DNA of 64,000 nt from Thermoanaerobaculia bacterium (GCA_963816185.1 CAWFJJ010000024.1:512001-576000); one strand, 5' to 3'; counted from the stretch's first letter, positions 11,806-33,272 are shown. The notes: generated by a model not told the origin, from the letters alone. Numbers and translations are program-made.

Positions 11806-13637
11806 GTGCGGCGATCCGGCGCCGCGACGGACGGGCGCTCGAAGACCTCGACGTCCGGGTCGCGTTCGAGCCCGAGGACGTCGTAAGCGGCCGCGGGAGA
11901 GATGGAGGGAGGGTTCCCGACGAGGGCGTCGGAGTCCCACGCGAGGCCGCCGTAACCGGCGACGGACCCTTGCATCTTCTGGAAGACGTCGCGGGGGGTC
12001 CACTGCGTGTCGAACGCGCCCCATCGCGCGCCGAGGTGCAGCAGGATCTCGAGGTCCGTGCGCACGACGGGCGGCGACACGATCGCCATGTCCACGCGCT
12101 GCACGCGTCCCTTCACGTTCACGAACGTGCCTTCCTTGCCGGAAAGAGGCGCGGTTGGAAGCACGATGTCGGCGGCGTCCGTCAGCGCGTTCCGCTTGCG
12201 GGCATGGACGACGAGGACGCTCGCCTTGCGCAACTCGGCGACGAACGCGGGATCGGAGCATTTCTCGCTGAAGTCGGCATCGGCAATGTAGAGGACGGCG
12301 GGAGAAGAGAAAGAGAAAGAGGAAGAGGAAGATTTCTTAGAAAGAGAAAGATCCGAAGAGGAAGAGGAGGATGAAGAAGAAGATTTCTTAGAAGGGAAGA
12401 GGGAGTAAGCCGATCCGAGGGCGGAGCCATCGCCCGCGCTTGCGCGCTTCAAGCCGGCCGCCTCGCAGCCCCGGGAGTTTGGTGCCGCGTCCGTTCCGTA
12501 CAGCCACCCGTCCACCTTGTTCTTGATCCGCCTTCTTGGCCCTTCGTCGACGAGAAACTCGGGGGTGCCCACCTTCAAAGAATCTTCAAACAGCGTCTTC
12601 AAAAGCCAGTTCTCCTCGGTCGTGAGCCGCGCCGAGCCGAGAGCTAGTACTCTTCCTTTCGAAGCAATATTGTCTTTCTTTTCTTCCTCTTCGAGGTGCT
12701 CGCCGCCTTCCCCCCGCGCCCGGTCGATCGCGACCTTCACGGCGTCGAGCGCCTCGCCCCAGTTCGTCTGCTTGCGCGCGTCGCTGCCGGGGACGCGGAT
12801 CTCGGGCTTCTTGAAATCCTGCCGGTTGAGGTCCTCGGAGCGGAAGCGGCCGTAATCGCACATCCAGAAGTCGTTCACGGCGGGTTGGACGCGCGGAAGG
12901 TACCGGTAGACGACGCGGTCGCGGTGCTCGATGGACATGTTGCAGCCGATCTCGCAGCCGTCGCACACCGAGCGCGTCTTGTCGAGCCACCACACGCGCT
13001 TGCGGAACCGGAACTCCTTCGTCGTGAGGGCGCCGACGGGGCAGACGTCGGCCGCGCAGGCCGAGAGGTCGTTGTCGAGCAGATGGCCCTCGTGCGTCCA
13101 GACGAACGTGTGGCCGGCCCTCTCGACGAACGTGAGCTCGCCCGTCTGGGTGATCTCCGCGCAGAAGCGGATGCAGCGCGTGCACTGGATGCAGCGCGTC
13201 ATGTCCGCGATGACGTGGGGGCCGATCGGCGTGCGGTCGTAGCCTGGGAACTGCCGCCGAGGTTCGGACGTGCGTGAGACCGGCAGGCCCGCGCCCATGG
13301 CGTTGTCCTGCAGCTTGCACTCGCCGGCCTGGTCGCAGATCGGGCAGTCCAGCGGATGGTTGATGAGGAGGAACTCCATCGTCGCGTTGCGCGCGGCGAG
13401 GGCCTTCTCCGTCGAGGCCTTGATGACCATGCCGTCGCGAATGGGCACCGTGCACGAGGCCTGGATCTTCGGCACGCCCTCGACCTCGACCATGCACATG
13501 CGGCACTGGCCGACGATCGACAGGCGCGGGTGATAGCAGAAGTGCGGCACGTCGACGCCCGCCGCCCGGCACGCCTCGAGCGCGTTCGCGTCGTTCGGGA
13601 CTTCGACGACCTTCCCGTCGACGGTTACCTTTGCCAT
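11802..13637 (-). CDS. nuoG: NADH-quinone oxidoreductase subunit G, with low-complexity insertions
   Basis: FCYHPRL..GQCRMC, NHPLDCPICDQAGECKLQD, RCIQCTRC, CPVGAL, CDGCEIGC; Ser-rich insert near 12300-12410. Confidence 0.95.
   Translation of the reverse strand: MAKVTVDGKVVEVPNDANALEACRAAGVDVPHFCYHPRLSIVGQCRMCMVEVEGVPKIQASCTVPIRDGMVIKASTEKALAARNATMEFLLINHPLDCPICDQAGECKLQDNAMGAGLPVSRTSEPRRQFPGYDRTPIGPHVIADMTRCIQCTRCIRFCAEITQTGELTFVERAGHTFVWTHEGHLLDNDLSACAADVCPVGALTTKEFRFRKRVWWLDKTRSVCDGCEIGCNMSIEHRDRVVYRYLPRVQPAVNDFWMCDYGRFRSEDLNRQDFKKPEIRVPGSDARKQTNWGEALDAVKVAIDRARGEGGEHLEEEEKKDNIASKGRVLALGSARLTTEENWLLKTLFEDSLKVGTPEFLVDEGPRRRIKNKVDGWLYGTDAAPNSRGCEAAGLKRASAGDGSALGSAYSLFPSKKSSSSSSSSSSDLSLSKKSSSSSFSFSSPAVLYIADADFSEKCSDPAFVAELRKASVLVVHARKRNALTDAADIVLPTAPLSGKEGTFVNVKGRVQRVDMAIVSPPVVRTDLEILLHLGARWGAFDTQWTPRDVFQKMQGSVAGYGGLAWDSDALVGNPPSISPAAAYDVLGLERDPDVEVFERPSVAAPDRRT
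12331..12395 (+). repeat. Two tandem GATTTCTTAGAARG motifs in a GA-rich tract inside nuoG
   Basis: GATTTCTTAGAAAG at 12331 and GATTTCTTAGAAGG at 12382. Confidence 0.9.
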
Positions 13638-13644
13638 GCCACGT

Positions 13645-13859
13645 CCGAAGAGAACGAAGAGAAGAAGATCTTCTTAGAAAGATAAGAGAGAGAAGAGAAG
13701 AGGGGGATATTTCCCGATTGGCCCGTGTCAAGGGTCTTCGACCGCTGCGCGGCGCGCGTAGCGCGCCCTTGACGCGGGTCAATCGGGAACAGATTGCCTG
13801 ATATCGGCGGCTGCATCAGCAGCCGCCGCATATAAGAAAAAAATCCCCTCCACTCTCTT
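13645..13859. repeat. Structured intergenic element between nuoF and nuoG
   Basis: TTCTTAGAA at 13671; 24-bp inverted repeat 13711-13734 / 13766-13789; 10-bp hairpin 13805-13828. Confidence 0.8.
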
Positions 13860-15232
<1,373 letters not shown>

Positions 15233-15236
<4 letters not shown>

Positions 15237-15790
15237 TTCAGGCCCTTCAGGAAGGTGTCGAGCCTGTCTTTCGTGATCACGAAGTGGTCGTCGTCGTTGA
15301 CCATCACGGCCGGGGCCTTGTCGCATTGCGCCAGGCACTCCACCTCGACGACGGTGAACTTCCCGTCGGGTGACGTCTCGCCGGGTCTCAGGTCGCCGAG
15401 ACGCTTCCGGCACTCGGTGTAGACCTCGCTGGCGCCGTTCAGGTGGCAGGAGATCGACGTGCAGAACTGAATCAGGTGTTTGCCGACCGGCGCCCGGTTG
15501 TACATCGTGTAGAACGTCACGACGCCCCAAACGAACGCCGGCGCCAGGTCGAGAAGCGTGGCGACGTAATCCACGGCCTCGCGCGAAATCCAGCCCCACT
15601 CACGCTGGGCGAGCCAGAGCGTCGGAAGGAGGGCCGCCTGTTTCGTGGGGTAACGCGTCAGCAGGCGCTCGAAGTCGTCGCGCGTTTCGCGCGAGAACGA
15701 GAGGGCGCGGCCGCACGAGAGGGCGCCGTGCTCTCCCACACGCGGGTTCTGGGCCGGGTCGGCCACGGGGAGCTTCTGTGTGCCGCTCAC
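15233..15790 (-). CDS. nuoE: NADH-quinone oxidoreductase subunit E
   Basis: VTFYTMY, CTSISC and ECLAQC 2Fe-2S ligands. Confidence 0.95.
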
Positions 15791-15791
15791 G

Positions 15792-16154
15792 TCAATCCCA
15801 GTCGAACGCGCCTTTCTTCCAGAGGTAGGCGAACCCGAGGAAGAGGACGAGGACGAAGACCAGCATCTCCAGGAAAACCGGCCATCCGCCCTGCCGGAAG
15901 ACCACCGCCCACGGATAGAGGAACGCGGCCTCCACGTCGAACAGGATGAAGACCATCGCGACGATGAAGAATTTGACGCTGATGCGCTTGTGGCTGTCGT
16001 CGAGGAGCGGCATGCCGCTCTCGTAGGGCGAGAGCTTCCGCACCGTGCGCACCTTGCGGCCGACGAGAATATTCAGACCGAGGAGCAGGATGCCGACGCC
16101 GACGGCGCCCATGATCATGAGCAGAATCGGCAAGAAGGCCAGCGGAGTGCCCAT
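15792..16154 (-). CDS. nuoA: NADH-quinone oxidoreductase subunit A
   Basis: PYESG, FILFDVEAAFLYPWA, WKKGAFDW. Confidence 0.95.
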   Translation of the reverse strand: MGTPLAFLPILLMIMGAVGVGILLLGLNILVGRKVRTVRKLSPYESGMPLLDDSHKRISVKFFIVAMVFILFDVEAAFLYPWAVVFRQGGWPVFLEMLVFVLVLFLGFAYLWKKGAFDWD

Positions 16155-16161
16155 GCGTCGC

Positions 16162-16179
16162 TCGTGATACTTTTCACAA
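16162..16179. promoter_or_regulatory. Rex operator upstream of nuoA
   Basis: TCGTGATACTTTTCACAA versus consensus TTGTGAAnnnnTTCACAA; TTGACG -35-like hexamer at 16197-16192 on the minus strand. Confidence 0.85.
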
Positions 16180-16223
16180 AGCAGGCGCGTTCGTCAACCC
16201 CTCATTCGCATGCAGGCGATTCC

Positions 16224-16928
16224 TTGACATCCCCGCACGAATCCCGGGAGCGATTCCGCACAGCCGCCCTCGTCCCCGCCTACCGCTGCGCGGGTACCGT
16301 CGGCAGCGTCGTCCGGGGACTCCTCGCGCACCTTCCGGAGGTTCTCGTGGTGGACGACGGGAGCGGCGACGCGACACCGAGAGAAGCCCTCGCGGACGGG
16401 GCTCGGGTGCTTACGCGCAGGGAAAACGGCGGAAAGGGGCGTGCGATCCGCGACGGGCTCGCCGATCTCCTCGGGCGCGACCTCACACACGTGGCGTTCG
16501 TGGACGCCGACGGGCAGCACGATCCCGGCGACCTTCCGGTGCTGCTTGCGGCCGCGCGCTCGGGCGCGGATTTCGTCGTCGGCTCGCGGCTGAAGGAGGC
16601 GGCCACGATGCCGGCGAAAAACTTCTGGGCGAACTCGATCGGCGACAGGGTGCTGTCGCGCATGACCGGGCTGCCGATCGAGGACGGCCAGTCGGGCTAC
16701 CGCGTGATCGCGTGCCGGCTGCTGCGACGGCTGCGCCTCCGCGCGAACGGCTACTCCATCGAGAACGAGATTCTCATCAAGGCAGCGCCGTACGTGGAGC
16801 GCTTCGCGACCGTGCCCGTGAGGACCATCTACGGCCCCGCGCGCTCGCACTACCGGCCCTTCCGCGACACCTGGGTCACGTCGTGGCTGAGCGTTTATTA
16901 CAAGACGCTCGATTCCGACGCGTCCTGA
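16224..16928 (+). CDS. Glycosyltransferase family 2 (DPM-synthase-like)
   Basis: LVPAY, VVDDGSGD, GKG, DADGQH, DGQSGYR; start uncertain (TTG 16224). Confidence 0.88.
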   Translation: MTSPHESRERFRTAALVPAYRCAGTVGSVVRGLLAHLPEVLVVDDGSGDATPREALADGARVLTRRENGGKGRAIRDGLADLLGRDLTHVAFVDADGQHDPGDLPVLLAAARSGADFVVGSRLKEAATMPAKNFWANSIGDRVLSRMTGLPIEDGQSGYRVIACRLLRRLRLRANGYSIENEILIKAAPYVERFATVPVRTIYGPARSHYRPFRDTWVTSWLSVYYKTLDSDAS

Positions 16929-16943
16929 GGCGATTCATCCGGC

Positions 16944-16959
16944 GGGCACAGTGATTGCG
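16944..16959 (+). promoter_or_regulatory. Sigma54-type promoter
   Basis: GGGCACAGTGATTGCG, GG-N10-GC. Confidence 0.6.
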
Positions 16960-17030
16960 TGTTTCCCGGAAGGTGGCCGTGCCTCGCGACGCGATGCGTG
17001 GTCACGAGGAAAAGTTGCAAGGAGGGATGT

Positions 17031-17405
17031 ATGAAACGAGGGTTGATTGCAGTCCTGTCGGCGGGCCTTCTCTTCGGAGGTCCCCTACTCGCGCAGAATT
17101 CCAAATCGTATGGAAGCGAAAAGAAAGTTTCGACGGCTGATCCGACCGGCCAGATGAAGACGGTGGAGGGCACCGTCAAGGAGTACACGGCCGGCAAGAG
17201 GCTGGTCCTCACCACGATCGACAACAAGACGATGATCTACAGGCTCGACCAGAAAGGCACGACGTTGAACGTCGATCCCTCGATCGCGGTCGGGTCCCAT
17301 GTGAAGCTGATGGAGCAGAAGAGCGGAGACACGAAGTCGTTGACCGTCGAGCCGGTTTCGAAGCCGTTGACTTCGGGGCCTGGTTATTCAGGCGCGAAGT
17401 CGTAA
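17031..17405 (+). CDS. Small secreted hypothetical protein
   Basis: GGAGG RBS, signal peptide MKRGLIAVLSAGLLFGGPLLA, beta-rich body. Confidence 0.8.
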   Translation: MKRGLIAVLSAGLLFGGPLLAQNSKSYGSEKKVSTADPTGQMKTVEGTVKEYTAGKRLVLTTIDNKTMIYRLDQKGTTLNVDPSIAVGSHVKLMEQKSGDTKSLTVEPVSKPLTSGPGYSGAKS

Positions 17406-17419
17406 GCCCACGCGGCAGG

Positions 17420-17460
17420 AAAGACGGGAGGACGTCGATCGGCGTTCACCCGTCTTTTTT
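17420..17460 (+). terminator. Intrinsic terminator
   Basis: AAAGACGGG...CCCGTCTTT hairpin followed by a T run. Confidence 0.7.
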
Positions 17461-18738
17461 GTGACGCGACGAGCGCTCCTCGGAGGTGCCCTCGCCGCGC
17501 TGGCCGGCCCGCTCGGGTCCGGCGGATGTAGACCTCGGGGCGAGGTGAAGAGAGAGATCCCGGACCGGCTCTCTTTCATCGTGCTGGCGAGCGAGCGCGC
17601 ACTCTGGGCGCCCATCGTGGAGCGCTTTGGGAAGGCTCACGGCGTCCGCGTCGAGATGGTCGAGGGCCCGAACGCCACCGATCTCCGGGAGAACATGTAT
17701 ACGACGGCGCTCTTGGCGGGCGACGACTCGCTCGACGTCGTCTACATGGACGTGACGTGGACGCCGAAGTTCGCGGCGGCCGGATGGCTCGTGCCTCTCG
17801 ACGACGTCTTCCGGCCCGAAGAGCTGAGCGCTCTCGTCCCGAAAGCGCTCAACGCGGGCCGGTATCGTGGGCGCCTCTACCGGATTCCCGTCAGGACCGA
17901 CGTCGGCCTGCTGTATTACCGCCGTGACCTGCTCGAATCGGCGGGGATCGCTCCGCCCGAGACGTTCGAGGAACTGGTCGACGCGGCGCGGCGTCTTCAG
18001 AGTCCTCCCGAGCGCTGGGGCTTCGTCTGGCAGGGGAGTCAGTACGAAGGCCTCACGTGCGTCTTCTTGGAGATTCTCCGGGGCGCGGGCGGATTCTGGG
18101 TCGATCCGGAGTCGCTCGAGGTCGGCCTCGACCGTCGCGAGGCTGTGGCGGCGCTGGAATTCCTGAGACGATCGCGTCTCGTGGACGCCATCAGCCCGCC
18201 GGGCGTGACGAGCCTGAAGGAGGACGACAGCCGCCGCATCTTTCAGGACGGCCGTGCCGTCTTCCTTCTCAACTGGCCTTACGTCTGGCGCCTCGCCCAG
18301 GCCGCCGACTCGCCGGTCGCGGGAAAGATCGGCGTGTCGGCGGTGCCGCACGCGCCGGGCCGGCAGGGCGCCGGCACGCTCGGCGGCTGGGGCTTCGGCA
18401 TCTCGCGATTCTGCAGGTCGCCCGAGCTCGCGGCGCAGTTCATGCGCGAGGCCGTCTCGCTCGAGGGGCAGCGCGCCCTCTGCCTCGCGTCCGGTTACGC
18501 GCCCGCGCGCGTCGAGGCCTACCGCGATCCGCAGCTCGTCGCCTCGAACCCACTGCTTCCCGAGATTCTCACTCTCCACGCAGATGCGGTGAGCCGGCCG
18601 GCGATCCCGGGATATGCCCTCGCCTCCGACATCCTGCAACGCCACGTCAGCGCCTCCATCGCCGGTCTCGTGACGGCCGAGAGCGCTCTCGCGAGCGCGG
18701 CGAAGGAGACACGGCTCCTTCTCGGACGCCCGCCATGA
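17461..18738 (+). CDS. Sugar ABC transporter substrate-binding protein (trehalose/maltose-like)
   Basis: Twin-Arg/lipoprotein-like N-terminus, DVVYMDVTW, QYEGL, NWPY, TLGGWG. Confidence 0.9.
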   Translation: MTRRALLGGALAALAGPLGSGGCRPRGEVKREIPDRLSFIVLASERALWAPIVERFGKAHGVRVEMVEGPNATDLRENMYTTALLAGDDSLDVVYMDVTWTPKFAAAGWLVPLDDVFRPEELSALVPKALNAGRYRGRLYRIPVRTDVGLLYYRRDLLESAGIAPPETFEELVDAARRLQSPPERWGFVWQGSQYEGLTCVFLEILRGAGGFWVDPESLEVGLDRREAVAALEFLRRSRLVDAISPPGVTSLKEDDSRRIFQDGRAVFLLNWPYVWRLAQAADSPVAGKIGVSAVPHAPGRQGAGTLGGWGFGISRFCRSPELAAQFMREAVSLEGQRALCLASGYAPARVEAYRDPQLVASNPLLPEILTLHADAVSRPAIPGYALASDILQRHVSASIAGLVTAESALASAAKETRLLLGRPP

Positions 18739-19616
18739 AAGGGCGCTCTCATTTCGCCGAGCACGTCCTGCCGCTCCTTCCGGCGCTCGCGCTCGTGACG
18801 CTCGTCGTCGGACTGCCGATTCTCGACGTCGTCGCGTTGTCCTTCACGCGCTCTGAGCTCGCGGGAGGAATCGTGACGCGATGGGCGGGCCTGCAGCCCG
18901 CCGCCCGTCTCTGGCAGGACACCCGGTTCTTCGACGCACTCCGAAACACGGCGGTCTTCACGGGGGCGTCCGTGTTCTTCGAGACCCTCCTCGGCGTCGG
19001 CTTCGCGCTCGTCCTCGACCGTTCCTTTCGCGGCCGGGGCCTCGTTCGTTCCGTCATGCTCGTTCCATGGGCCCTCCCGACCGCGGTCATGGCGCTCGCG
19101 TTCTCCTGGATCTTCAACGACACCTTCGGCGTGGCGAACGACGTCCTCCGCCGTACGGGTCTCGTGTCGGCCTCCATCCCGTGGCTGAGCGAACCGCGTT
19201 CGGCGATGGCGGCGATCGTCCTCGCGGACGTCTGGAAGACGACTCCCTTCGTCGCGCTCATCGTCCTCGCCGGCTTGCAGGGCATCCCCGAGAGCGTTCT
19301 CGAGGCGGCTCGCGTGGACGGGCTCGGCGCGTGGCAGCGGTTTCGCCACGTGGTCTTCCCGCTGCTTCTGCCCTCGATCGCCGTCGCGTCGCTCTTCCGC
19401 GCGGCCCAGGCCTGGGGCGCTTTCGACATCGTCTACGTCATGACTGGCGGAGGCCCCGGCGGATCGACCGAGACCGTTTCTCTCTACGCGTTCCAGAGCT
19501 TCTTCCGGTACCTCGACTTCGGATACGGCGCCGCGATCGCAACGCACGGCACCCTTCTCGTGGCGGCCCTCGCGCTCGTCGCTGCGTTGTCGCGCCGCCG
19601 CCGAGGCCTGGCTTGA
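18735..19616 (+). CDS. Sugar ABC transporter permease
   Basis: DVWKTTPFVAL, EAARVDG loop, MTGGGPG. Confidence 0.92.
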   Translation: MKGRSHFAEHVLPLLPALALVTLVVGLPILDVVALSFTRSELAGGIVTRWAGLQPAARLWQDTRFFDALRNTAVFTGASVFFETLLGVGFALVLDRSFRGRGLVRSVMLVPWALPTAVMALAFSWIFNDTFGVANDVLRRTGLVSASIPWLSEPRSAMAAIVLADVWKTTPFVALIVLAGLQGIPESVLEAARVDGLGAWQRFRHVVFPLLLPSIAVASLFRAAQAWGAFDIVYVMTGGGPGGSTETVSLYAFQSFFRYLDFGYGAAIATHGTLLVAALALVAALSRRRRGLA

Positions 19617-22567: not shown

Positions 22568-22591
22568 GAGTAGACCTCCCCGCACGGACCC

Positions 22592-22607: not shown

Positions 22608-22628
22608 GATCGCGCGGAAGTCTTTTCA

Positions 22629-23549
22629 ATGAGCGGCATAATCACCGGGAAGGTGAGCGCGAGAGGGGCCCCGATCCTGACCGTCGACGTGGAGGACTGG
22701 TTCCACCTCTGCGGGTCTCGCGCGTACTCCGATCCGGACTCCTGGGCGGGACGCGAGAAGCGGGTCCACCTCGGTGTCGAGCGCATCCTCGCGCTTCTCG
22801 ACGGATCCGGCTCGACCGCGACGTTTTTCGTCCTCGGCTGGGTCGCGCGACAGAGCCCCGCGCTGGTCAAGAGCATCGCGGACGCAGGCCACGAGATCGC
22901 CTGCCACGGCGACCTCCACCGCCGCGTCTTCGAGATGACTCTCGACGAGTTCCGCGAAGACCTCCGGAGGAGCCGCGACTCGCTGCGGGAGCTCGTCGGG
23001 AAGCCGGTGACGTCCTTCCGCGCGCCGGAGTGGTCGATGAAGAGCGCGAAAAACGCAGCCTTCGCAGTTCTCGCCGAGGAGGGTTTCACGCTGGACTCCT
23101 CGCTCACGACCGCGCCGCCCGTGGGCGAGCCTTCGAATCCGGATCGGCCCACGATGCTCGAGACCTCGTCGGGCCCGATCCTGGAGGTCCCTCCGCTCAT
23201 GGGCACTTTCTTCGGCTTTCGGGCGATGTGGGGCGGCGGCGTGTGCGCGCGAATGACGCGCGAGAGTCGCGTTTCGGCCGCGATCGAGCGGGCGCTCGCA
23301 AACGGCATCCCGCCCGTGCTCTACGGGCATCCCTGGGAGTTCGACGATGCCCATCCCCCGATGCCCGGCCTCTCTCCCGTCGAGCGTCTCGTCCACTTCG
23401 CGGGGCGTAGGCGGACGGAAGGGCGCTGGCGCCGCCTCCTCGCGCGGTATCGGTTCGAGCCGATCTCGTCGATTCGAGCGGAGCTCGAGAGGAAGAAAGA
23501 GAAAGAAGAGATTTCTGCGAATGGGAAGAGGGGAGGCGTCGCGGCGTGA
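22629..23549 (+). CDS. Polysaccharide deacetylase (DUF3473-type)
   Basis: TVDVEDWFH, ATFFVLGW, GHEIACHG, FRAPEWS, YGHPWEFD. Confidence 0.9.
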   Translation: MSGIITGKVSARGAPILTVDVEDWFHLCGSRAYSDPDSWAGREKRVHLGVERILALLDGSGSTATFFVLGWVARQSPALVKSIADAGHEIACHGDLHRRVFEMTLDEFREDLRRSRDSLRELVGKPVTSFRAPEWSMKSAKNAAFAVLAEEGFTLDSSLTTAPPVGEPSNPDRPTMLETSSGPILEVPPLMGTFFGFRAMWGGGVCARMTRESRVSAAIERALANGIPPVLYGHPWEFDDAHPPMPGLSPVERLVHFAGRRRTEGRWRRLLARYRFEPISSIRAELERKKEKEEISANGKRGGVAA

Positions 23550-24613
23550 GCGCGCCTCTCGTGGTCTCCTCTGTATCGTCCTCCACCTTCGTCGCTCTTT
23601 TTCCCGGTCAGCTCTCCGAGAAGGCGGGAATGGGGGAGGCGCTCGCGCGACGCTTCGAGTTCGCCTCTTCCCTATTCGAAGAAATTTCCAGAAGATCAGG
23701 AGTTCGTCTCGCCGACGTCTTCTTTGGCGAGGGTGCTAAGAACCTCCACGACGACCTGCCGGCGCAAGTCGGCGTCTTTTCCGTCTCGCTCGCGGCGCTC
23801 GAGGCGCTGCGCCGCGTTCACCGCCTCGAGCCGGCGGCCGCGGCGGGATACAGCCTCGGCACGTATGCCGCGTTCGTCGCGGCGGGCGCGCTCGAGATAT
23901 GGGCCGCCCTCGACGTTCTCCTCGAAGCCGAGCGGCTCATGTCCGAGGCGTCCAGACGCGGCGAGCTGGACGGTACGATGGCGTACGTCATCGGCCTCCC
24001 GCGCCCGGCCGTCGAGGAAGCGCTCGCGGCGCTCACTCCCGATCGCGCGCGCCTCGCGATCGCGACGGAGAACGCGGCCGCGCAGTTCGTCCTGACGGGC
24101 GAGAGGGCGCTCGTCGCCGCGGCGGTCGAGGCGCTTCGGCCGAAGGCGCTGAAGGCGGATCTGCTTCCGATCAATGTCCCGATGCACTCGAGCAGCCTCT
24201 CGCGTGTGTGTGATCGTCTGCAAAATTTCTTAGAAGGGGGGGTGAGGGTAAAGCGGCCGGAAGCGGCTCTCTTCGCTCCGATGCTGGCACGGAAAATTGA
24301 GACCGCTGAGGAAGCTTCCTATACCCTTTCTAAGCAAATTTGCAGACCGTCGCTCTTCGCGCCGACGCTGCGGGCAATGGGCGAGGCCGGGTTGGCGCGC
24401 TTCGCCGAGGTCGGCCCGGGCGACGTCCTCACGAAGCTGGTTCGCTGGACGCTTCGCGACGCGAAGGTCGCGAATCCCGCGCTGGAGGATCCCGCTTCGA
24501 TCGAAGCGTTCGCGAAGTCCCTCGCGCCTCCTCCCCTCTTCCCCTTCAAAGAAAGATCCACCGTGGCCTTTGCCGAAGCAAAGCAGGACTCGCACGGGTC
24601 CGAAGCAAAATGA
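23546..24613 (+). CDS. ACP acyltransferase (FabD-like, divergent)
   Basis: LFPGQ, GYSLG nucleophile elbow, VPMHS, EVGPG. Confidence 0.88.
   Translation: MSAPLVVSSVSSSTFVALFPGQLSEKAGMGEALARRFEFASSLFEEISRRSGVRLADVFFGEGAKNLHDDLPAQVGVFSVSLAALEALRRVHRLEPAAAAGYSLGTYAAFVAAGALEIWAALDVLLEAERLMSEASRRGELDGTMAYVIGLPRPAVEEALAALTPDRARLAIATENAAAQFVLTGERALVAAAVEALRPKALKADLLPINVPMHSSSLSRVCDRLQNFLEGGVRVKRPEAALFAPMLARKIETAEEASYTLSKQICRPSLFAPTLRAMGEAGLARFAEVGPGDVLTKLVRWTLRDAKVANPALEDPASIEAFAKSLAPPPLFPFKERSTVAFAEAKQDSHGSEAK
24216..24347. repeat. Inverted pair of TTCTTAGAA-type motifs inside the FabD-like gene
   Basis: GTCTGCAAAATTTCTTAGAAGGGG versus the reverse complement of the right arm GTCTGCAAATTTGCTTAGAAAGGG. 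Confidence 0.8.
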
Positions 24614-25377: not shown

Positions 25378-25449
25378 AAAGCTCATATCCTGGGGGCCTG
25401 CGCTCGTATACTCTTCGGTTCGAACCAACCACGGAGGGGGAGTACGTTC

Positions 25450-25713
25450 TTGCCAGAAGACCTGAAGAAAAGAGTCAAGGAGCTGATCGTTCGCCAGCTC
25501 AAGCTCGAGATGGACCCCGCGACGATCCGCGACGAGGCGCCGCTTTTCGGAGACGCGGACGGCGGTCTGGGTCTCGATTCGATCGACGCGCTCGAGCTCG
25601 TGCTCGGCGTGGAGAAGGAGTTCGGCATCAAGGTGCAGGACGAGGAAGTGGGCGTGAAGGCGTTCGCTTCCGTCAACGCCCTGTGCGATTTCGTGCGCGA
25701 GAAGGCGGCGTGA
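25450..25713 (+). CDS. Acyl carrier protein
   Basis: LFG..GLGLDSIDALEL phosphopantetheine site. Confidence 0.93.
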   Translation: MPEDLKKRVKELIVRQLKLEMDPATIRDEAPLFGDADGGLGLDSIDALELVLGVEKEFGIKVQDEEVGVKAFASVNALCDFVREKAA

Positions 25714-26114
25714 AACCCATGGATTTCCAGCCTTTGCCGCACGAGTTCCCGTTCCGCTTCGCGGACGGAGTGATCGAGCGGACCGGCCCGGCCGAGGGGC
25801 GCGTGCGGGCGAACGTGACGGCGGACGCCGCGACCGTGAGAGCAGCCGGGTTTCCCACGGCCACGCTGGCCGAGCTCGTGGCGCAGTCGGCCCTCCTTCT
25901 CCAGGGCGGCGACGCCGCGCTCGGGCGGAAGGGGTTCCTCGCCGGCATCTCCGATTTCTCGCTCCAGCGGCTGCCCGTGCCGGGCGACGTTCTGACGGTC
26001 GACGTGAGGATCGCGGGGCGGCTCGGAGACGCCGTCAAGTTCGAAGGGGTCGTGACCGACGGCGAGGGGGAAGCGGTCGCACGCGGCGCGGTGACCGTGA
26101 AGCAGGGGAGCTAG
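25710..26114 (+). CDS. FabA/FabZ-like hotdog-fold protein
   Basis: LPHEFPFRFAD, AELVAQS, PVPGDVL. Confidence 0.85.
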   Translation: MKPMDFQPLPHEFPFRFADGVIERTGPAEGRVRANVTADAATVRAAGFPTATLAELVAQSALLLQGGDAALGRKGFLAGISDFSLQRLPVPGDVLTVDVRIAGRLGDAVKFEGVVTDGEGEAVARGAVTVKQGS

Positions 26115-26115
26115 G

Positions 26116-26856
26116 TTGATCCCGGACTCCGGCACGTTTCCGCGCGGGTCGGGCCTCTTCGCGAAGAAGAAGGTCGCGCTGGCGGGTCCGCCGGCGGGAC
26201 TCCTGCGCGGAGCCGCGGGAGCGCTCGAGGGCGCCGGCTATTCGGTCGTGGCCGCCGAGAAGCTGGAGGATCTCCTTCGTATTCCGGCCGAGAAGGTCCC
26301 GGACCTCGCGATCATGGACGTCGGTTTTCCGCCGGACGGCGGCGTGGCCGCCTGCCGGAGGCTGCGCGAGGAAAAGCACTGGCGGATGGTGTCGATGATG
26401 CTCGTCGTACCGGCAGGGCAGCCGCACCTCGAGGAAGCTCTCGTGCCCGGAGTGAACGACTTCATCCTCGCTCCTTTTCCGCCCGACGAGCTCCTCGACA
26501 AGACGAAACGCCTCACGCTCATCCCGGCGCGGCGCGAGCTGAACACCCTGGCCCGCGTGCGCGAGGGGCGCACCGACGGCTCGGTCCTCCTCGGCAAGCT
26601 GCTGAACGTCTCGGGGAACGGGATGCTGGTCGAGATCGAAAGCGCGATCGCGATCGGGCGCATCGTCGAGATCGAGTTCTTCCTGCCCGACGATCAGGCT
26701 CCCCTGAACGCGAAGGGCCGGATCATGCGGCGCACGACCGAGCTCGACCATTTCCATCCGGCGTTCGGCGTCAGGTTCACCGAGATCTCCGAGAAAGACC
26801 AGATTCGCATTGACGCCTTCGTCGCGGAGCGCGAGCGCGCGGGCTTTCGCCGCTGA
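26116..26856 (+). CDS. Receiver-like plus PilZ domain protein
   Basis: PDLAIMDV, GVNDFILAPF; C-terminal NVSGNG and FGVRF. Confidence 0.8.
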   Translation: MIPDSGTFPRGSGLFAKKKVALAGPPAGLLRGAAGALEGAGYSVVAAEKLEDLLRIPAEKVPDLAIMDVGFPPDGGVAACRRLREEKHWRMVSMMLVVPAGQPHLEEALVPGVNDFILAPFPPDELLDKTKRLTLIPARRELNTLARVREGRTDGSVLLGKLLNVSGNGMLVEIESAIAIGRIVEIEFFLPDDQAPLNAKGRIMRRTTELDHFHPAFGVRFTEISEKDQIRIDAFVAERERAGFRR

Positions 26857-26857
26857 T

Positions 26858-26886
26858 TTGACGAGGGTTAGCCCGGGCTTTATCCT
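26858..26886 (+). promoter_or_regulatory. Sigma70 promoter of tRNA-Leu
   Basis: TTGACG-17 bp-TATCCT. Confidence 0.75.
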
Positions 26887-26896
26887 GCCGCTCCGC

Positions 26897-26985
<89 letters not shown>

Positions 26986-26992
26986 ACCTTAG

Positions 26993-27442
26993 ACCCCCTC
27001 ACTCCTCGCCTACGTTTCCACCGCGGACGCCGAGGGACTCAAGGCCTACATCGGGACGTGGAAGCTGAACGTCGCGAAGTCCAAGACTGAATCATGGACG
27101 GCGAAGAGTCAGACTCAAGTGTACGAGGACTGGGGAGGTGGACTCCTGCACATGCGCTCCGAGGGCACGGACGCGCAAGGCAACCCCTCGTTCTCGGAAT
27201 ATGCTGCGCGCCTTGATGGAAAGGCGTACCCCTACGTCGTCCGCGGTGCCTCTGTCGCCTATACGTTGTCCTTGACGCACGTCGACGATCACGCGATCAC
27301 GTGGACCCAGCTGGGGGACGGTAAGGCCTCATTTGCCGGGACCCATGTGGTCTCGGCCGACGGCAAGAGCTTCACGCAAACGTTCAAGATGAACGGAAAG
27401 GGCGAGCCAAGCAGCGCGGTGCTCGTCTACGAGAAGCAGTAG
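26993..27442 (+). pseudogene. 5'-truncated secreted beta-barrel (lipocalin-like) protein
   Basis: Frame SLLAYVSTADA...YIGTWKLNVAKSK...VSADGKSFT...VYEKQ; in-frame TAG at 26990 and no start codon before the GTW motif. Confidence 0.65.
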
Positions 27443-27492
27443 AGCCGGGTCTTCGCGTCTGCTTGGGACCGTTACACGCAGCACGGACCAAT

Positions 27493-27548
27493 CAAGCGGC
27501 CCCAAGCTCAGCGGCGAGCGCAGCGAGCCCGCTGCAACGCTGGAGGGT
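27493..27548 (-). repeat. Degenerate attC-like palindrome
   Basis: Minus strand GCGTTGCAGCGGGCTCGCTGCGCTCGCCGCTGAGCTTG; near-identical to 2995-3019. Confidence 0.5.
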
Positions 27549-27835
27549 CCTCGGCGGATTCGCCGGCGATGCACCGCATCCTTGACAGAGACGCAACGTG
27601 GGATCAGATTCAGTCCTGAGTCGACGTGCCCGCGGGGGCCGCGCTCGCCGGCCTGGGTAACCCATGAAAGCCAGCGCGATTCGGTTATACGAAGATCGGC
27701 TTGACCTCAGCGTCGAGGCGGCGATCCCGTCGTGTGGCATGTCGGCCCGCCGGAACTTCTACCGGCACGATGGTGCCGGGGCCGCCGTCAAGATCGCGAT
27801 CGTCGAGCGGGTGAAGCGCGCGCGAGGCCCACGAC

Positions 27836-30544
27836 GTGCGGGCTAAACATGGTCGAGCCGAAGAGGCGTTACGAGAAAGCGAGGGCCGCCTTCGTACGCT
27901 GCTCGAACACGTCGACCTCCTGGCGATGATCCTCGACACCTCCGGGCGAATCCTCTACTGCAACGAGGCGCTCCTCCGACTCGCCGGACGCACCGCCGAA
28001 GACACCATCGGAGCCAGCTGGTTCGAGCTGTTCGTACCAGCGGAGATGCAGACCGCTCTCCGTAAGGTATTCGACGACGCGATGCAGACCGGAAACATTC
28101 CCGGCCGCTACGCCAACGAGCTCGTCCTCCGGGACGGTGGCCGCCGGCTTATCCAGTTCTCGAACGTGGTTCTGCGCGACGCGGCTGGGGTCGTGTCCGG
28201 CACCGCAAGCATCGGCATGGACGTCACCGAGCGACAGCGGTCGGAAGACGCGCTGAAGCGATTGAACGAAAGGCTCACCCTCGCCACGCAAGCCGCGTCC
28301 CTCGGGATCTGGGATTGGGACGTCGCCACGAACCTTCTCATTTGGGATGCCGGTATGTGTCAGCTGCACGGCCTCGAAGGGAATCATTTTTCTGGCACCT
28401 ACGACGCCTGGCTTAAGCGTCTCCATATCGAAGATGTCGACCGCTGCAAAAATGAAACAGCTCTGGCATTGCGCGGCGAGAAGGACTATGACACCGAATT
28501 CCGCGTTGTCTGGCCAGATGGAACGATTCGGCACCTCAAGGCCCTCGCACTGGTCGTCAGAGATGCAGACCGGAAGCCACTGCGCATGATCGGAGTCAAC
28601 TACGACGTTACCGAGCGAAAGGTGGCGGAAGACGCGCGCCAGGAAAGCGAGCAACGGGTTCGCCTTCTACTGAATTCGACAGCCGAGGCGATTTACGGAC
28701 TCGACGTCGACGGCAAGTGCACGTTCACGAATCTCAGCTGCCTGAAGATGTTCGGATACGCGAATTCCGACGATCTCCTCGGACGAAACATGCATGCCGT
28801 GGTCCACCACTCGCACGCGGACGGCTCACCACTGCCTGTGGAAGGCTGCAAGATCTTTCAGGCCTTCCGGCGCGGCGAGGACGCACACGTGGACGACGAG
28901 GTGCTGTGGCGAGCCGACGGAACCTGCTTCTCGGCTGAGTATTGGTCCTACCCGATCCGCAAGGACGGACGAGTTGTCGGGGCCGTCGTCACCGTCCTCG
29001 ACATCGCCGCACGCCGCGCGGCCGAACAGGCACTCCGCACAAGTGAGAGCCGCTACCGTGCCCTTTTCGATGAGAACCCAATGCCGATGTGGGCCTACGA
29101 TGCCAAGACGCTGAAGATCGTCACGGCAAACCAAGCCGCCGCCGAGCAGTATGGCTTCACGACTAGCGAGCTCGTATCCATGACGCTGACCGACGTCCGA
29201 GCCCCGGAGGAAGCCGACAAGGTCCGGGAGGCCGTCAACGCGACACCCCTCGGCCGCCAGTACGTCGGCACGTGGAAGCATCGGAGGAAGGACGGCAGGC
29301 TCCTCGACGTGGACGTCCACCTCAACGACGTGGAATTCGAAGGGCACCGGCTGCGGCTCGCCGTCTTACACGATGTCACCGAGCAGCGGCGGCTCGAGGA
29401 GCAGTTTCGCCAGGCACAGAGGATGGAGGCCATCGGGCGCCTCGCCGGGGGCGTGGCCCACGACTTCAACAACCTCCTGACGGTCATCGGAGGGTATGGC
29501 GAACTCCTCTTGGCGGACCTGCCAACGGGCACACCCGCACGCGAAGCTGTCGGAGAAATGGTGGCAGCCGGAGTCCGCGCCGCCGCATTGACCCGCCAGC
29601 TGCTCGCATTCAGCCGCAAGCAGGTCCTCGAGCCTCGGGTACTGGATCTCAACAGCATCGTGGCAAACGTGGACAAGATGCTCCGCCGTCTCATCGGCGA
29701 AGACATCGATTTCAAAACGGTTTCCGGGCCGGACCTCGGGCGCGTTCGGGCCGACCCCGGGCAGATCGAGCAGGTTCTCATGAATCTGGCGGTCAACGCT
29801 CGCGACGCCATGCCAAAGGGCGGGAAGCTGACGATCGAAACGTGCAACGTTGACCTCGACGCTGCCTACGCGCGTCAGCACGTCACCGTCCGCCCGGGAC
29901 CCTACGTCATGCTGGCTGTCAGCGACACTGGGACAGGGATGGACGAGGCCACGATCGCGAGGATATTCGAGCCCTTCTTCACGACGAAGGAGCAGGGCAA
30001 GGGGACCGGCCTGGGCCTGTCGACGGTCTACGGAATCGTTCAGCAGAGTGGCGGGACCATCGCGGTGGACAGCATCCCGGGCCGCGGCACGAGCTTCAAG
30101 ATCTATCTTCCCCGCACCGAATACCAGTCAGAACCGGAACGGATCGGCACGCCATCGGGCCAGTTCATCGTCAGTGGGCGTGAGACGGTGCTGCTCATCG
30201 AGGACGAGCCAGCGGTGCGGCGGCTGGTGCGAGACATCCTGGCCGGGAAGGGCTACACCGTCTTGGAGGGGACGGACACCGAGGAGGCGCTGAGGCTCGC
30301 AAGGGAGCATCCGGGTCCGATCCACCTGATCGTGACGGACGTCGTCATGCCGAGGATGAGCGGACCCGATTTCATCACGCACGCGCGGGCACTCCTCCCT
30401 TCTGTGAAGGTCCTCTTCATGTCTGGGTATTCTGACGAGGCTGTCACCCATCACGGCATTCTGGAACAGGGTGCCGACTTCCTCGCGAAACCCTTCACGG
30501 CTGCCTCGCTCCTGAACAAGGTCATTGAGGTGTTGAACCGGTAA
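27836..30544 (+). CDS. Hybrid sensor histidine kinase (4 PAS-HisKA-HATPase-REC), possibly N-terminally truncated
   Basis: PAS ends DVTER, DVTER, DIAAR, DVTEQ; AHDFNNLL; NLAVNARDAMP; GTGLGL; TDVVMP. Confidence 0.93.
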   Translation: MRAKHGRAEEALRESEGRLRTLLEHVDLLAMILDTSGRILYCNEALLRLAGRTAEDTIGASWFELFVPAEMQTALRKVFDDAMQTGNIPGRYANELVLRDGGRRLIQFSNVVLRDAAGVVSGTASIGMDVTERQRSEDALKRLNERLTLATQAASLGIWDWDVATNLLIWDAGMCQLHGLEGNHFSGTYDAWLKRLHIEDVDRCKNETALALRGEKDYDTEFRVVWPDGTIRHLKALALVVRDADRKPLRMIGVNYDVTERKVAEDARQESEQRVRLLLNSTAEAIYGLDVDGKCTFTNLSCLKMFGYANSDDLLGRNMHAVVHHSHADGSPLPVEGCKIFQAFRRGEDAHVDDEVLWRADGTCFSAEYWSYPIRKDGRVVGAVVTVLDIAARRAAEQALRTSESRYRALFDENPMPMWAYDAKTLKIVTANQAAAEQYGFTTSELVSMTLTDVRAPEEADKVREAVNATPLGRQYVGTWKHRRKDGRLLDVDVHLNDVEFEGHRLRLAVLHDVTEQRRLEEQFRQAQRMEAIGRLAGGVAHDFNNLLTVIGGYGELLLADLPTGTPAREAVGEMVAAGVRAAALTRQLLAFSRKQVLEPRVLDLNSIVANVDKMLRRLIGEDIDFKTVSGPDLGRVRADPGQIEQVLMNLAVNARDAMPKGGKLTIETCNVDLDAAYARQHVTVRPGPYVMLAVSDTGTGMDEATIARIFEPFFTTKEQGKGTGLGLSTVYGIVQQSGGTIAVDSIPGRGTSFKIYLPRTEYQSEPERIGTPSGQFIVSGRETVLLIEDEPAVRRLVRDILAGKGYTVLEGTDTEEALRLAREHPGPIHLIVTDVVMPRMSGPDFITHARALLPSVKVLFMSGYSDEAVTHHGILEQGADFLAKPFTAASLLNKVIEVLNR

Positions 30545-30932
30545 GGATGTGTGGGTCGAAGCGGCGAAGCGCAGCGAGCCCCCTGCGGGGGGGAGGCGTC
30601 TTCGACGAGCGGGCACCATTGCGAGTGGTCGTTGAACGTGGCGACGAGCGACAGGACCACGGCAGGGTCGACCCCTCGCGGCAGGGCTTCTCGAACACGG
30701 CTCAGCGGTAGATCCCGGCGACTCCGTGGTAGCCTTTTGGAGCGGGAACACGGACCGAATACGGACAAATAGCGGGGGAGACGCGAAGGACCCCCGCCAA
30801 TCGGCACCGAAAGCCGGAAAGGTGGGCCTCCAGTCCCCCCCTTCCGCGCCAACCCCCTCTCCAGAATGCAGACTCTCGAAGAGCACCACGGGGGATTTTC
30901 TTAGAAGGTAAAGGGGGACGGCGCCCCGCAAA

Positions 30933-33272
30933 ATGAAGGACCTTGAATTGAACAGGAAGATCCTCGACGCGCTTCATCCGCGCGGCTCGAGAATCCTCGC
31001 ACTTTCGGACCTCGCGAATCGCGTGTTCGGAGCGGGTCCCGATCCCGCCCGCGAGAGCGCTCTCCGCGCCGCCGTGGCCGACCTGGAGCGCCGGGGCGAG
31101 ATCGTGCGCGTCAAGGGCGAGAAGCTGTCGCGCATCGAGTTCACGGACTTCCAGGCCGGCACGCTCGCGATCCGCGGGGAGGGCCGGGCCTTTCTTCTTT
31201 CCGGCGAGCCGGGAGTCCCCGACGTGCCCGTAACCGCCCTCGGCAGCGCGCTCGACGGCGATTTCGTCCTCGTTCGCGTCGAAAAGCCAAGAGCCGCCCC
31301 GAAGGCCCGAGCCAGGGATTCGCGCTCGCGCTTCGAGCCGCGCCCGACGGGCGTCGTCGTGAAAGTCCTCGTGCGACGCCGCGAGACCGTGGTCGGAAAG
31401 ATCGCCCGCTCTCCCGAGGGCACGTTCATCGTGCCTTTCGACCGCAAGATCGACGCGCGCCTGGCGGTGCCCGAGGGCAAGGACCTCGCGGCGCCCGCCG
31501 GCATCTTCGTCGAGGCCCGGCTCATCGCGTATCCCGACGACCGACGGCTCGCCCTCGCCGAGGTTCTCGAGCTGATCGGGTTCGAAGGAGACCCGGGCGT
31601 CGACGTCGAGGTCGTGGCCCGCAAGTGGGGCATCCCGCGGAAATATCCCGAGACGGTCGTCGCCGAGGCCGAAGCCGCAAGCGGCGCCGTGGGAGAGGAC
31701 GAGCGGAAGCTCCGCGCGGACTTCACGGGCCGCACGATCGTGACGATCGACGGCGAGACCGCGCGCGATTTCGACGACGCGATCGAGGCCGAGGAGCTGC
31801 CGGGCGGCGCCTTCCGGATCGGCATTCACATCGCGGACGTTTCGCACTACGTGCCGGTCGGCAGCGCCCTCGACGCCGAGGCCTTCGAGCGCGGGACCTC
31901 GGTCTATTTCCCGGACCGCGCGATCGCCATGCTCCCCGAGCGCCTCTCGAACGACCTCTGTTCCTTGCGCCCGGACGAGGAGCGCCGCACCGTCTCGGCG
32001 GTGCTCACGCTCGACAAGCACGGAGAGACGGTCAAGGCAGAATTCTTTCGCTCGTTGATTCGGAGTCGCGCAAGACTGACGTACACGCAGGTAGGAGGGT
32101 TGATCGAGGATTTCTTAGAAAGTGAAGAAGGAAACGCCTCTCGCAGCGCGGCGGCCGAGCCCTTGCCGCATTCACCTTCTAAGAAATCCCCGTTCTCTTC
32201 GGACGTTGCTTCCATGCTCCGCGTCGCGCAGAAGGCGTCGGGTCTTCTCCGAGCAAAAAGATCCCGCCGCGGCTCCCTCGACTTCGACCTGCCGGACGCG
32301 GACGTCATCCTCGGCGAAGGGGGAGACGTCGTCGAGATCATCCGGGCCGTGCGCAACGAGGCGCACCGCCTCATCGAGGAGTTCATGCTGGCCGCGAACG
32401 AGGCAGTCGCCAAGCACCTCGAGTTCGTCCCGACGCCGGCTCTCTACCGCGTGCATGACAGGCCGGACGAGAGCCGCCTCGCGGACCTGAGGGTCGTGCT
32501 CGGGCCGCTCGGCTACGACCTTCCCGAAGACGAGGAAGAGGTCACGCCCGCCACGTTCCAGACCATCCTCGACCAGGCGGCGGGAAAGCCCGAAGAGCGG
32601 TTCGTCTCGGATCTCGTCCTGCGCGCCCAGAAGAAAGCCATCTACTCCGAGGAGTGCCGCGGGCACTACGCGCTCGCGGCGAAGCACTACTGCCACTTCA
32701 CGTCGCCGATCAGGCGCTACCCGGACCTCCTCGTCCACCGGGCGCTCGTGGAGTGGCTCGCCATCCGCCGCCCGCCCGCCGCCGAGGAGGCGGAAGGGCG
32801 CACGCGCTGGTTCCACGAGGCGGCGGCGCACTGTTCGTCGCGCGAGAGGCGCGCCGAGTCGGCCGAGCGCGAGGCCGTGGCGTGGAAGAAGTTCGTCTTC
32901 CTGTCGTCGCGCGTGGGCGAGGAATTCTGGGCGTACGTCTCGGCGGTCGTGGGCTTCGGCCTCTTCGTCACGCTCGAGGACATCTACGTGGACGGCCTCG
33001 TGCCGATCTCGTCGCTCGAGGACGACTTCTATCGCTTCGAGGACGTCGAGCACCGTCTCGTGGGCTCCTCTTCGGGGCGCGTCTACCGGCTCGGGGACCG
33101 CCTCCGGGTGAAGCTCGTCAAGGCGGACGCGGAAAAGCGCGGCCTGGACTTCGTGCCTGTGGGCGACAGCGCCGGGCCGCGGCGAAAGAGCCGCGTCGAA
33201 GCCATCGAGCGGCAGCGACAGCAGCGCGGACGACGCCGGTCCCCCGCCCCACACGGCCGGGCGCGGCGATAG
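30933..33272 (+). CDS. rnr: Ribonuclease R
   Basis: TIDGETARDFDDA, HIADVSHYV, IEEFMLAANE, HFTSPIRRYPDL, S1 domain, basic tail. Confidence 0.96.
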   Translation: MKDLELNRKILDALHPRGSRILALSDLANRVFGAGPDPARESALRAAVADLERRGEIVRVKGEKLSRIEFTDFQAGTLAIRGEGRAFLLSGEPGVPDVPVTALGSALDGDFVLVRVEKPRAAPKARARDSRSRFEPRPTGVVVKVLVRRRETVVGKIARSPEGTFIVPFDRKIDARLAVPEGKDLAAPAGIFVEARLIAYPDDRRLALAEVLELIGFEGDPGVDVEVVARKWGIPRKYPETVVAEAEAASGAVGEDERKLRADFTGRTIVTIDGETARDFDDAIEAEELPGGAFRIGIHIADVSHYVPVGSALDAEAFERGTSVYFPDRAIAMLPERLSNDLCSLRPDEERRTVSAVLTLDKHGETVKAEFFRSLIRSRARLTYTQVGGLIEDFLESEEGNASRSAAAEPLPHSPSKKSPFSSDVASMLRVAQKASGLLRAKRSRRGSLDFDLPDADVILGEGGDVVEIIRAVRNEAHRLIEEFMLAANEAVAKHLEFVPTPALYRVHDRPDESRLADLRVVLGPLGYDLPEDEEEVTPATFQTILDQAAGKPEERFVSDLVLRAQKKAIYSEECRGHYALAAKHYCHFTSPIRRYPDLLVHRALVEWLAIRRPPAAEEAEGRTRWFHEAAAHCSSRERRAESAEREAVAWKKFVFLSSRVGEEFWAYVSAVVGFGLFVTLEDIYVDGLVPISSLEDDFYRFEDVEHRLVGSSSGRVYRLGDRLRVKLVKADAEKRGLDFVPVGDSAGPRRKSRVEAIERQRQQRGRRRSPAPHGRARR
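32108..32189. repeat. 19-bp inverted repeat forming an in-frame insert in rnr
   Basis: GGATTTCTTAGAAAGTGAA ... TTCACCTTCTAAGAAATCC (18/19). Confidence 0.9.

Follow-up and report, generated by a model that had tools for sequence, protein, structure and literature searches.

A recurrent AT-rich word, first noticed in a 64,000-nucleotide (nt) stretch of Thermoanaerobaculia DNA (GCA_963816185.1, CAWFJJ010000024.1:512001-576000), belongs to a genome-wide family of paired sites. Its carriers form a single genus of uncultured Acidobacteriota from soil, and the word is accounted for by no known repeat system or enzyme. The whole stretch, hereafter called the window, is C24:512001-576000 of the genome analysed here (G000; 5,088,052 bases in 30 contigs, 67.2% GC, 95% complete). 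Copies of the word form oriented arms, which occur far in excess of chance and face each other in pairs around sequence that differs from locus to locus. The reading that we favour, at a probability of about 0.45, is that the arms form paired recognition sites, a family specific to this lineage and spread across the genome, which is held by selection or molecular drive and is probably read as a stem-loop.

Results

Excess of the word

The first-pass annotation of the window reported a quasi-palindrome, TTCTWAGAA, in several housekeeping genes. Seven exact copies were confirmed, starting at 12334, 12385, 13671, 24227, 30898, 32112 and 32177, where 0.05 were expected; none of 100 dinucleotide shuffles gave seven. 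The 12-mer TTTCTTAGAAGG with up to two mismatches matched the window 13 times against 1.48 expected. Among the near-variants that the annotation had listed, those at 12572, 24326 and 24543 appeared in the mismatch scan and those at 12658 and 23513 in the weight-matrix scan, which added one at 23675. The variant placed near 13831 passed neither scan. The polypurine context, the facing pairs, the DFLE and SKKS readings and the halo of AT-ending codons were all seen; in the FabD-like gene the GC content at third codon positions (GC3) was 0.47 in the arm codons and 0.78 in the rest of the gene.

Genome-wide, the exact 9-mer occurred 337 times in 5.09 Mb, split 165 to 172 between the two strands. 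The genome was then scanned with a softened weight matrix, and overlapping matches were merged into arms. At a score of at least 16 there were 976 matches, compared with 34 in a third-order Markov genome; at a score of at least 24 there were 580 and none, respectively. Merging left 921 arms at 486 loci (462 on the plus strand and 459 on the minus strand), about one arm per 5.5 kb. Core variants among them include TTCTTAGAA (329), TTCTTCGAA (183) and TTCTTTGAA (48). The excess also held within predicted genes against a codon-aware null of 20 synonymous-codon shuffles, where TTCTTAGAA was seen 94 times versus 1.3 expected and TTCTAAGAA 84 times versus 1.5, a 60-70-fold excess of the 9-mers. The core inference of the annotation, that a sequence-specific system not previously described and not chance is at work, holds. 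Among the papers listed by a full-text literature search for the 9-mer and by a search on palindromic repeats in Thermoanaerobaculia, none gave an account of the word, and the arms matched no Rfam family. An Rfam match on the hairpin of the nuoF-nuoG spacer, to mir-786, was sub-threshold and was taken as noise.

Arm anatomy and the pairing rule

An oriented arm is asymmetric and consists of a purine tract of about 25 nt followed by GATTTCTTAGAAGGTGAAGAGGG. Its consensus is GATTTCTT(A/C)GAAGGTGAAGAGGG, preceded by the codon-periodic purine tract. The purine tracts on the outer side are (GAR)n-like by eye and differ in length between species, while the most conserved and defining part of the arm is the unique, non-repetitive core. 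The quasi-palindrome that was originally taken as the unit is incidental. What is conserved is an asymmetric word about 22 nt long, in which a CG-centred variant displaces the centre of symmetry.

Neighbouring arms up to 400 nt apart followed a strict orientation rule: 285 neighbours were plus then minus, 71 plus-plus, 63 minus-minus and only 16 minus then plus. Exact cores alone gave the same picture (61, 8, 4 and 4, respectively). The ratio of 285 facing to 16 away-facing neighbours indicates that the unit is a facing pair, in which a purine-rich arm is followed by an arbitrary centre and a pyrimidine-rich arm. The spacing of facing arms peaked at 60-100 nt with a tail to about 250 nt (overall range, 50-260 nt), and no helical phasing was found at 10.5 bp (Rayleigh R 0.019). 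Whole units folded better than their shuffles, with a median z of -2.4 between genes and -2.1 in genes; centres alone folded no better than shuffles (z about 0). Template-switch correction between the arms was ruled out because identity within pairs was not raised.

Inverted sites of one consensus around 60-200 bp match the geometry of known invertons, in which a global recombinase would flip the inter-arm segment, including the segments inside genes. However, of 144 in-gene pairs inverted in silico, only 48 kept an open frame. The frame in use was open in 68 of 144 cases, and the remaining antisense frames in 113 of 288, which is no enrichment, and none of 18 RNase R orthologues had an inverted centre. 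The recombinase searched for, the small serine recombinase of G000, was present in only 3 of the 26 other genomes of the genus. We consider inversion highly improbable.

Genomic location and reading frames

Genes were predicted with our own 3-periodic Markov caller, which gave 4,025 genes covering 84% of the genome. About 60% of the 921 arms lay in these genes (551), with 338 between genes and 32 on gene edges; the corresponding counts for 5,000 random positions were 4,138, 814 and 48. All four stop-free frames across the arms were used (FLE 51, (F/L)LR 43, LLRN 26 and SKK 58). This, together with the equal use of both strands, places the signal at the level of DNA, and a protein-level motif was ruled out. 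A Pfam family was assigned to 37 of 40 host genes sampled. The hosts identified in this way include RNase R, UvrD, RecG, XseA, MraW, a class I tRNA synthetase, AccC, HisA/F, IspE, PlsC, LysA, ComEA and endonuclease III. Genes framed by arms numbered 20 versus 13.3 expected, which is not beyond chance. One predicted frame, C28:31503-34766, runs for 1,087 codons with Asd, amino-acid-kinase and DapB domains; it represents a fusion, or else three genes that the caller joined.

Loci were present in 5.3% of the spacers between tandem genes; for divergent and convergent spacers the shares were 5.9% and 3.2%. A role as terminator was ruled out, convergent spacers being the poorest in loci and the centres being unstructured. 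A main function in translation starts or ribosome binding was likewise ruled out, as only 10 of 187 inward-facing starts lay within 10 nt of a core.

The arms could also be duplex-DNA sites for a nucleoid-associated or regulatory protein, with two bound sites bridged or looped. A strongly sequence-specific word that is used equally on both strands and in genes and spacers alike, that forms an AT-rich patch in a 67% GC genome and that shows no tie to the layout of transcription units is consistent with such a site. However, the pairs are not helically phased, their spacing ranges over 50-260 nt, and the loci are clustered and irregular (coefficient of variation 1.39). Moreover, pairs lie within essential genes, where a roadblock would be costly. 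On this evidence a duplex site is quite unlikely, and the chromosome-organising site of matS/parS type proposed in the annotation is not supported, given the same clustering and lack of phasing. The broad, unphased spacing suits a loop of any length better than it suits protein-bridged duplex DNA.

Arm density differed between contigs (53 per Mb on C29 versus 301 per Mb on C28) and was 3-6-fold lower on whole contigs. Arm-free stretches of 65-131 kb were present on C29, C25 and C5, for example at C29:240389-371386. These low-arm contigs and stretches are possibly acquired regions, a second replicon or mis-binned contigs. A stretch of 16-20 kb was found twice at an identity of at least 85% (C14:29773-45538 and C24:140572-160651), which doubles the counts of some arm loci; it may be a real duplication or an assembly redundancy.

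Taxonomic range and conservation

The 12-mer was present at 45-210 copies in all 18 genomes of the genus first sampled and absent from 12 genomes of two other families. At the scope of the family, it was found in 26 of 26 other genus genomes (21-210 copies) and in 6 of 7 genomes of the sister genus g11 (1-16 copies), and in none of 26 genomes from 8 other genera. A set of CG-centred variants, mostly TTTCTTCGAAGG among the listed sites, outnumbered the A-centred form in 7 of 7 g11 genomes and in some members of the genus; g11 genomes carried 5-32 CG-centred copies each, and controls 0-3. The positions listed for other genomes, those of g11 among them, likewise show pairs of a plus arm followed by a minus arm. 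In viral contigs the 19-mer was found at one locus only.

Individual sites were shared as well. The same word stood at the same orthologous positions in 26 of 26 independent assemblies of the genus, and 17 of 18 RNase R genes carried it in frame. An artefact of assembly, which the annotation had named as a possible refutation, or of sequencing therefore has negligible probability. TTA accounts for 0.3% of leucine codons in long open reading frames, yet 10 of 18 genus orthologues of RNase R use it for the leucine at the arm site. In FabD, 8 of 9 genus-level sequences had an exact forward core.

Two modes of origin

Alignments with orthologues indicate that some arms sit in inserted segments, namely those in RNase R, NuoG and the nuoF-nuoG spacer. 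Between two anchors in RNase R, the stretch measured 135-138 nt in 12 of 12 outgroup orthologues (two of them from the unpublished genomes G019 and G024, with which the other 10 agree) and 126-308 nt in 18 genus orthologues, 17 of which remained in frame. The forward core takes the place of the outgroup sequence CTCCTCGAG, and a variable GC-rich centre between the arms is common to several species. The RNase R loci of G006 and G007 contain a frame shift in or just past the arm region, with a length of 2 modulo 3 in G006; long-read indel error in low-complexity sequence is the most likely source. Pfam spans placed the RNB domain of RNase R 25 residues above profile length and the DUF2400 host 34 residues above it, and the MraW domain was split at its arm pair. 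MraW and AccC also had extra in-frame residues. At the nuoF-nuoG junction, a 225-nt block of G000 was absent from G017, G009 and G013, and to judge from the match ranges G003 appears to hold a shorter part of it. This spacer, the sole clean presence/absence site examined, showed no clear target-site duplication. Within NuoG, one arm was kept in five relatives; it is duplicated in tandem in G000 and G003 and single in the four other relatives.

Other arms, by the same kind of comparison, arose by point changes on native sequence with length unchanged, as in FabD, PlsC, IspE and an ABC ATPase. The segment of FabD from PMH to EVGPG was 76 codons long in 13 of 14 arm-bearing sequences versus 77 in three outgroups. 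Residues aligned one to one (FLEGGVR with FVDGHVR and LSKQI with LGKQI), and the conserved ALFAPML lay in the centre. The corresponding nucleotide changes are TTCGTCGAC to TTCTTAGAA and CTGGGGAAGCAGATC to CTTTCTAAGCAAATT. By Pfam spans, the extra length across pairs was small or nil in PlsC (+9 over a 52-residue pair), XseA (+3), the ABC ATPase (+12 over 68), LysA and a GDSL lipase, and IspE kept its conserved motifs across the arm pair.

Origin in situ by point changes, with turnover by substitution at orthologous sites, is what a drive resembling DNA uptake signals would produce: fragments bearing the word would be preferentially taken up or recombined, and the word would accumulate where tolerated. 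Equal strand use, the A-centred and CG-centred dialects of the two genera and the long word-free stretches agree with this, and the hosts include UvrD, RecG, XseA, endonuclease III and ComEA, a list not compared with chance. The uptake-like drive proposed in the annotation is supported to this extent, but the 285:16 facing rule and the loops of 60-200 nt are left unexplained by it. In addition, the arm density is several-fold below that of known uptake sequences, and competence is not known for this class. We regard uptake as the driving force as very unlikely.

Copies, carriers and possible partners

Most units do not resemble each other outside the arms. Among 257 pair centres, 211 matched no other centre, and the best non-self identity of the flanks, outside the core, was below 0.6 for 806 of 879 arms. 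The remaining 46 centres belonged mainly to one paralogous gene family and one cargo element. The gene family is a large set of Ser/Thr kinases with PD40 repeats, whose common arm pair, 93 nt apart, flanks the segment RFEREAKLLA..NHPNIA, with a run of poly-Ser after the pair; 15 such loci were found on C24:602.8-622.9k, C23, C4, C5, C6, C8 and C28. The cargo element is a separate repeat of about 135 nt, located in the window at 13704-13832, in which a long hairpin (TCCCGAATGNCCGATGTCAAGGG...CCCTTGACATCGGTCATTCGGGA) precedes a second GC hairpin and ATATGAGAAA. In G000 the element is enclosed by arms or adjoins them at 7 places (the others being C25:~104.9k, ~315.2k and ~499.8k, C30:~540.0k, and C24:~143.2k and ~152.0k). 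Eight centres were grouped and seven aligned, and two of the eight lie on the duplicated contig stretch. The element also matches further places in G003 and G017 and belongs to no Rfam family.

The window contains a single-copy gene for a transposase of IS630/Tc1-mariner type (DDE_3, 355 aa) at 3051-4118 on the minus strand, in a low-GC patch. The ends of this element, near 3050-3075 and 4140-4170, carry the terminal repeats CTAGT..GTAAC.GCTG.AA. Arm-like ends were found neither on this element nor on 11 repeat segments examined, mostly copies resembling insertion sequences.

These observations bear on an old, inactive family of foldback miniature inverted-repeat transposable elements, or of elements like those of Rickettsia, whose long inverted ends would have been inserted in the ancestor of the genus, in frame and between genes, and would now be decaying. 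The orientation of the arms obeys the rule of terminal inverted repeats, and their density between genes is about five times that within genes. Some pairs enclose non-native extra sequence (the additional residues in RNase R and DUF2400 and the split MraW), the nuoF-nuoG block is missing in three relatives, the hairpin element of about 135 nt lies between arms at seven aligned copies, and copy number varies from 21 to 210 across species. On the other hand, the great majority of centres and the flanks are unique, the single clean insertion site showed no clear target-site duplication, and the ends of the IS630-like element and of the repeat segments are unrelated to the arms. Arms on native codons without change of length cannot be insertions. 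Neutral decay, moreover, would not keep arms near consensus beside unrecognisable centres. Taken together, such a family is unlikely. The colonisation of genes by palindromic elements suggested in the annotation thus fits the extra sequence at RNase R, DUF2400 and the spacer, but not the unique centres and flanks or the native-codon pairs, and no mobilising enzyme was found.

The G000 genome gave no match to the RAYT/Y1 transposase family PF01797 or to DUF559 (PF04480), and it contained no small single-domain GIY-YIG gene of the Ssn type, its sole GIY-YIG match being in an open frame of 616 aa. Profiles across genomes covered one serine recombinase, one reverse transcriptase and, among methylases, the C5 family. 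The reverse transcriptase of G000 was found in none of 26 genus genomes, and only 3 of the 26 had a C5 methylase. With the narrow range of the serine recombinase given above, the co-distributed transposase or reverse transcriptase that the annotation had envisaged did not emerge.

Arms in the window

The weight-matrix scan placed 13 arms in the window, all at 12.3-32.2 kb. Four of them are in nuoG. A purine tract with a forward arm (12296..12345, plus strand; core 12334-12342; matrix score 43.6), which the minus-strand gene reads as ...SKKSSSS, is followed by a second forward arm (12346..12405, plus; core 12385-12393), the tandem copy limited to G000 and G003. A degenerate reverse arm at 12560..12590 (minus; 12572-12583) faces these forward arms across native NuoG codons. 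Another at 12645..12700 (minus; score 25.5) combines a TTCGAA-type core at 12658-12666 with a pyrimidine tract. The spacer between nuoF and nuoG carries a purine tract with a forward arm (13641..13703, plus; core 13671-13679), which lies within the 225-nt block.

Five arms are associated with the FabD-like gene. Just upstream of it is a forward variant with the core TTCTGCGAA (23485..23540, plus; core 23513-23521; score 31.6), and a reverse variant (23660..23700, minus; 23675-23683; score 21.3) lies on the native FabD sequence ...SLFEEIS.... The forward arm at 24215..24250 (plus; core 24227-24235) is set on native codons (LQNFLEGG) with the length found in outgroups, and it forms a facing pair with the reverse variant at 24315..24350 (minus; 24326-24337), also on native codons (LSKQI). 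A last reverse variant (24530..24560, minus; 24543-24554) falls in a C-terminal extension of FabD that is limited to genus-level relatives.

The remaining arms belong to RNase R. One forward arm (30880..30920, plus; core 30898-30906; score 37.1) is 26 nt upstream of the start codon. Within the RNB domain, the forward arm at 32095..32135 (plus; core 32112-32120), whose core corresponds to the replaced outgroup sequence described above, is read EDFLESEEG, and the reverse arm at 32165..32205 (minus; core 32177-32185) is read HSPSKKSP. These two flank an in-frame segment that is absent from 12 of 12 outgroup orthologues.

Discussion

In this study, a long and specific word was found at hundreds of sites in the genomes of one genus, arranged in facing pairs that occur both on inserted segments and on native codons. 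We propose that two arms facing each other 60-200 nt apart around arbitrary sequence would be read by a putative sequence-specific, trans-acting factor as one two-fold-symmetric unit. The arms are not copies spread by a transposon. They arose locally along two routes, either by a small insertion or expansion of a purine tract or by point substitution on existing sequence, essential genes included. Once present, they would be recognised arm by arm and held near one consensus, site by site, by selection or molecular drive acting through the factor. Most probably the unit takes the form of a stem-loop, in either RNA or single-stranded DNA, whose purine arm is 5' and whose stem opens on the side of the purine tract. 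The word, its excess, the pairing rule, both modes of origin and the taxonomic range are results of the analysis, from which the factor, the stem-loop and the purpose are inferred. A stem-loop is favoured because the length of the loop is free, helical phasing is absent and the polarity of the arms fixes the open end of the arm duplex.

Several results weigh against this proposal. Identity within pairs was 0.767 versus 0.762 between pairs; in the absence of covariation, the pairing itself is not demonstrated as selected. The exact cores in RNase R were kept in only 7 (forward) and 10 (reverse) of 18 genus orthologues, and cores drift between species at orthologous sites, as at one C28 locus with TTCTTTGAA, TTCCTCGAG and TTCTGCGAA, which points to weak constraint or high turnover. 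Synonymous conservation at the FabD arms was not significant (same-codon fraction 0.733 over 8 columns versus 0.681 over 184 columns; p = 0.29). The ten-fold range in copy number among species and presence/absence blocks such as the nuoF-nuoG spacer also fit a mobile element. The loci are clustered and not evenly spaced, and arm-free stretches of 65-131 kb exist in the genome. The counts of arms in and between genes rest on our own crude gene caller. Above all, no trans-acting factor was found among the families searched, which is the central gap.

Bacterial genomes have long been known to contain dispersed hairpin repeats and hyper-abundant words, such as REP, heptamer pairs, HIP1 and uptake sequences, most of which lack an explanation. 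We suggest, tentatively and with the odds against it, that the family described here adds to uptake sequences and HIP1 a third type of genomic 'self word', in which a putative factor that reads single-strand hairpins, perhaps a nuclease, a recombinase or a repair-linked protein, overwrites native sequence, essential genes included, with 22-nt facing pairs. If so, about 490 short segments would be marked per genome, and the pairs might bound tracts of recombination or transformation, as does NTS-Ssn in Neisseria.

Whatever its purpose, the family joins a specific word, a strict facing-pair geometry and the overwriting of codons of essential enzymes against a very strong codon bias. Through this combination, the question of whether such sites reflect selection, drive or a parasite becomes testable in one genus, with 27 genomes and a ten-fold range of copies. 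The word is also long and specific enough that the protein reading it can be fished out. For annotation, the purine- and Ser-rich inserts and the patches of rare codons in these metagenome-assembled genomes are real and should not be treated as errors.

The arms can be compared with four groups of known systems. Rickettsia palindromic elements are palindromic units of 100-150 nt that lie in frame within housekeeping genes and are translated as tolerated loops, and their copies share the whole sequence. In the present family the arms alone are shared, and some pairs enclose native codons without any insertion.

Uptake sequences (USS/DUS) are over-represented short words with lineage dialects. 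HIP1 of cyanobacteria is likewise an over-represented short word. The word described here resembles both in that it arises in situ within genes, whatever the frame, in its conservation at orthologous sites and in having dialects by lineage. It differs in being longer, asymmetric, linked to a purine tract and arranged in strict facing pairs. A co-distributed DNA methyltransferase that recognises the word would be expected of a palindrome of HIP1 type; the C5 methylase here has the narrow range reported above.

REP/REPIN-RAYT and NTS/dRS3 (SRM) with Ssn, as presented by Chenal et al. 2025 (PMC11893778), comprise hundreds of hairpin repeats that are often inverted doublets, persist in lineages and are read by enzymes as single-stranded DNA. 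Hundreds of sequence-specific repeats per genome are a feature shared with the arms. The differences are that a single arm here is not itself a hairpin, that the elements are common in genes, that no Y1 transposase or small GIY-YIG gene was found in G000 and that arm-framed genes do not exceed chance.

Finally, Rehm et al. 2015 (PMC4692102) describe convergent pairs of heptamer repeats (GGGAATC) in Xanthomonas, with 70-75 pairs per genome and 7-11% of the repeats intragenic. The two families are alike in being dispersed and genus-typical, in placing the purine- or G-rich strand first on both strands, in a number of units that varies between species and in a function left unexplained, and the outer part of the arms looks, by eye, like a comparable short-period purine array, of (GAR)n type. 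They differ in that a non-repetitive core of 12-22 nt defines the arm, that about 60% of the arms lie in predicted genes and that some of them are written on native codons.

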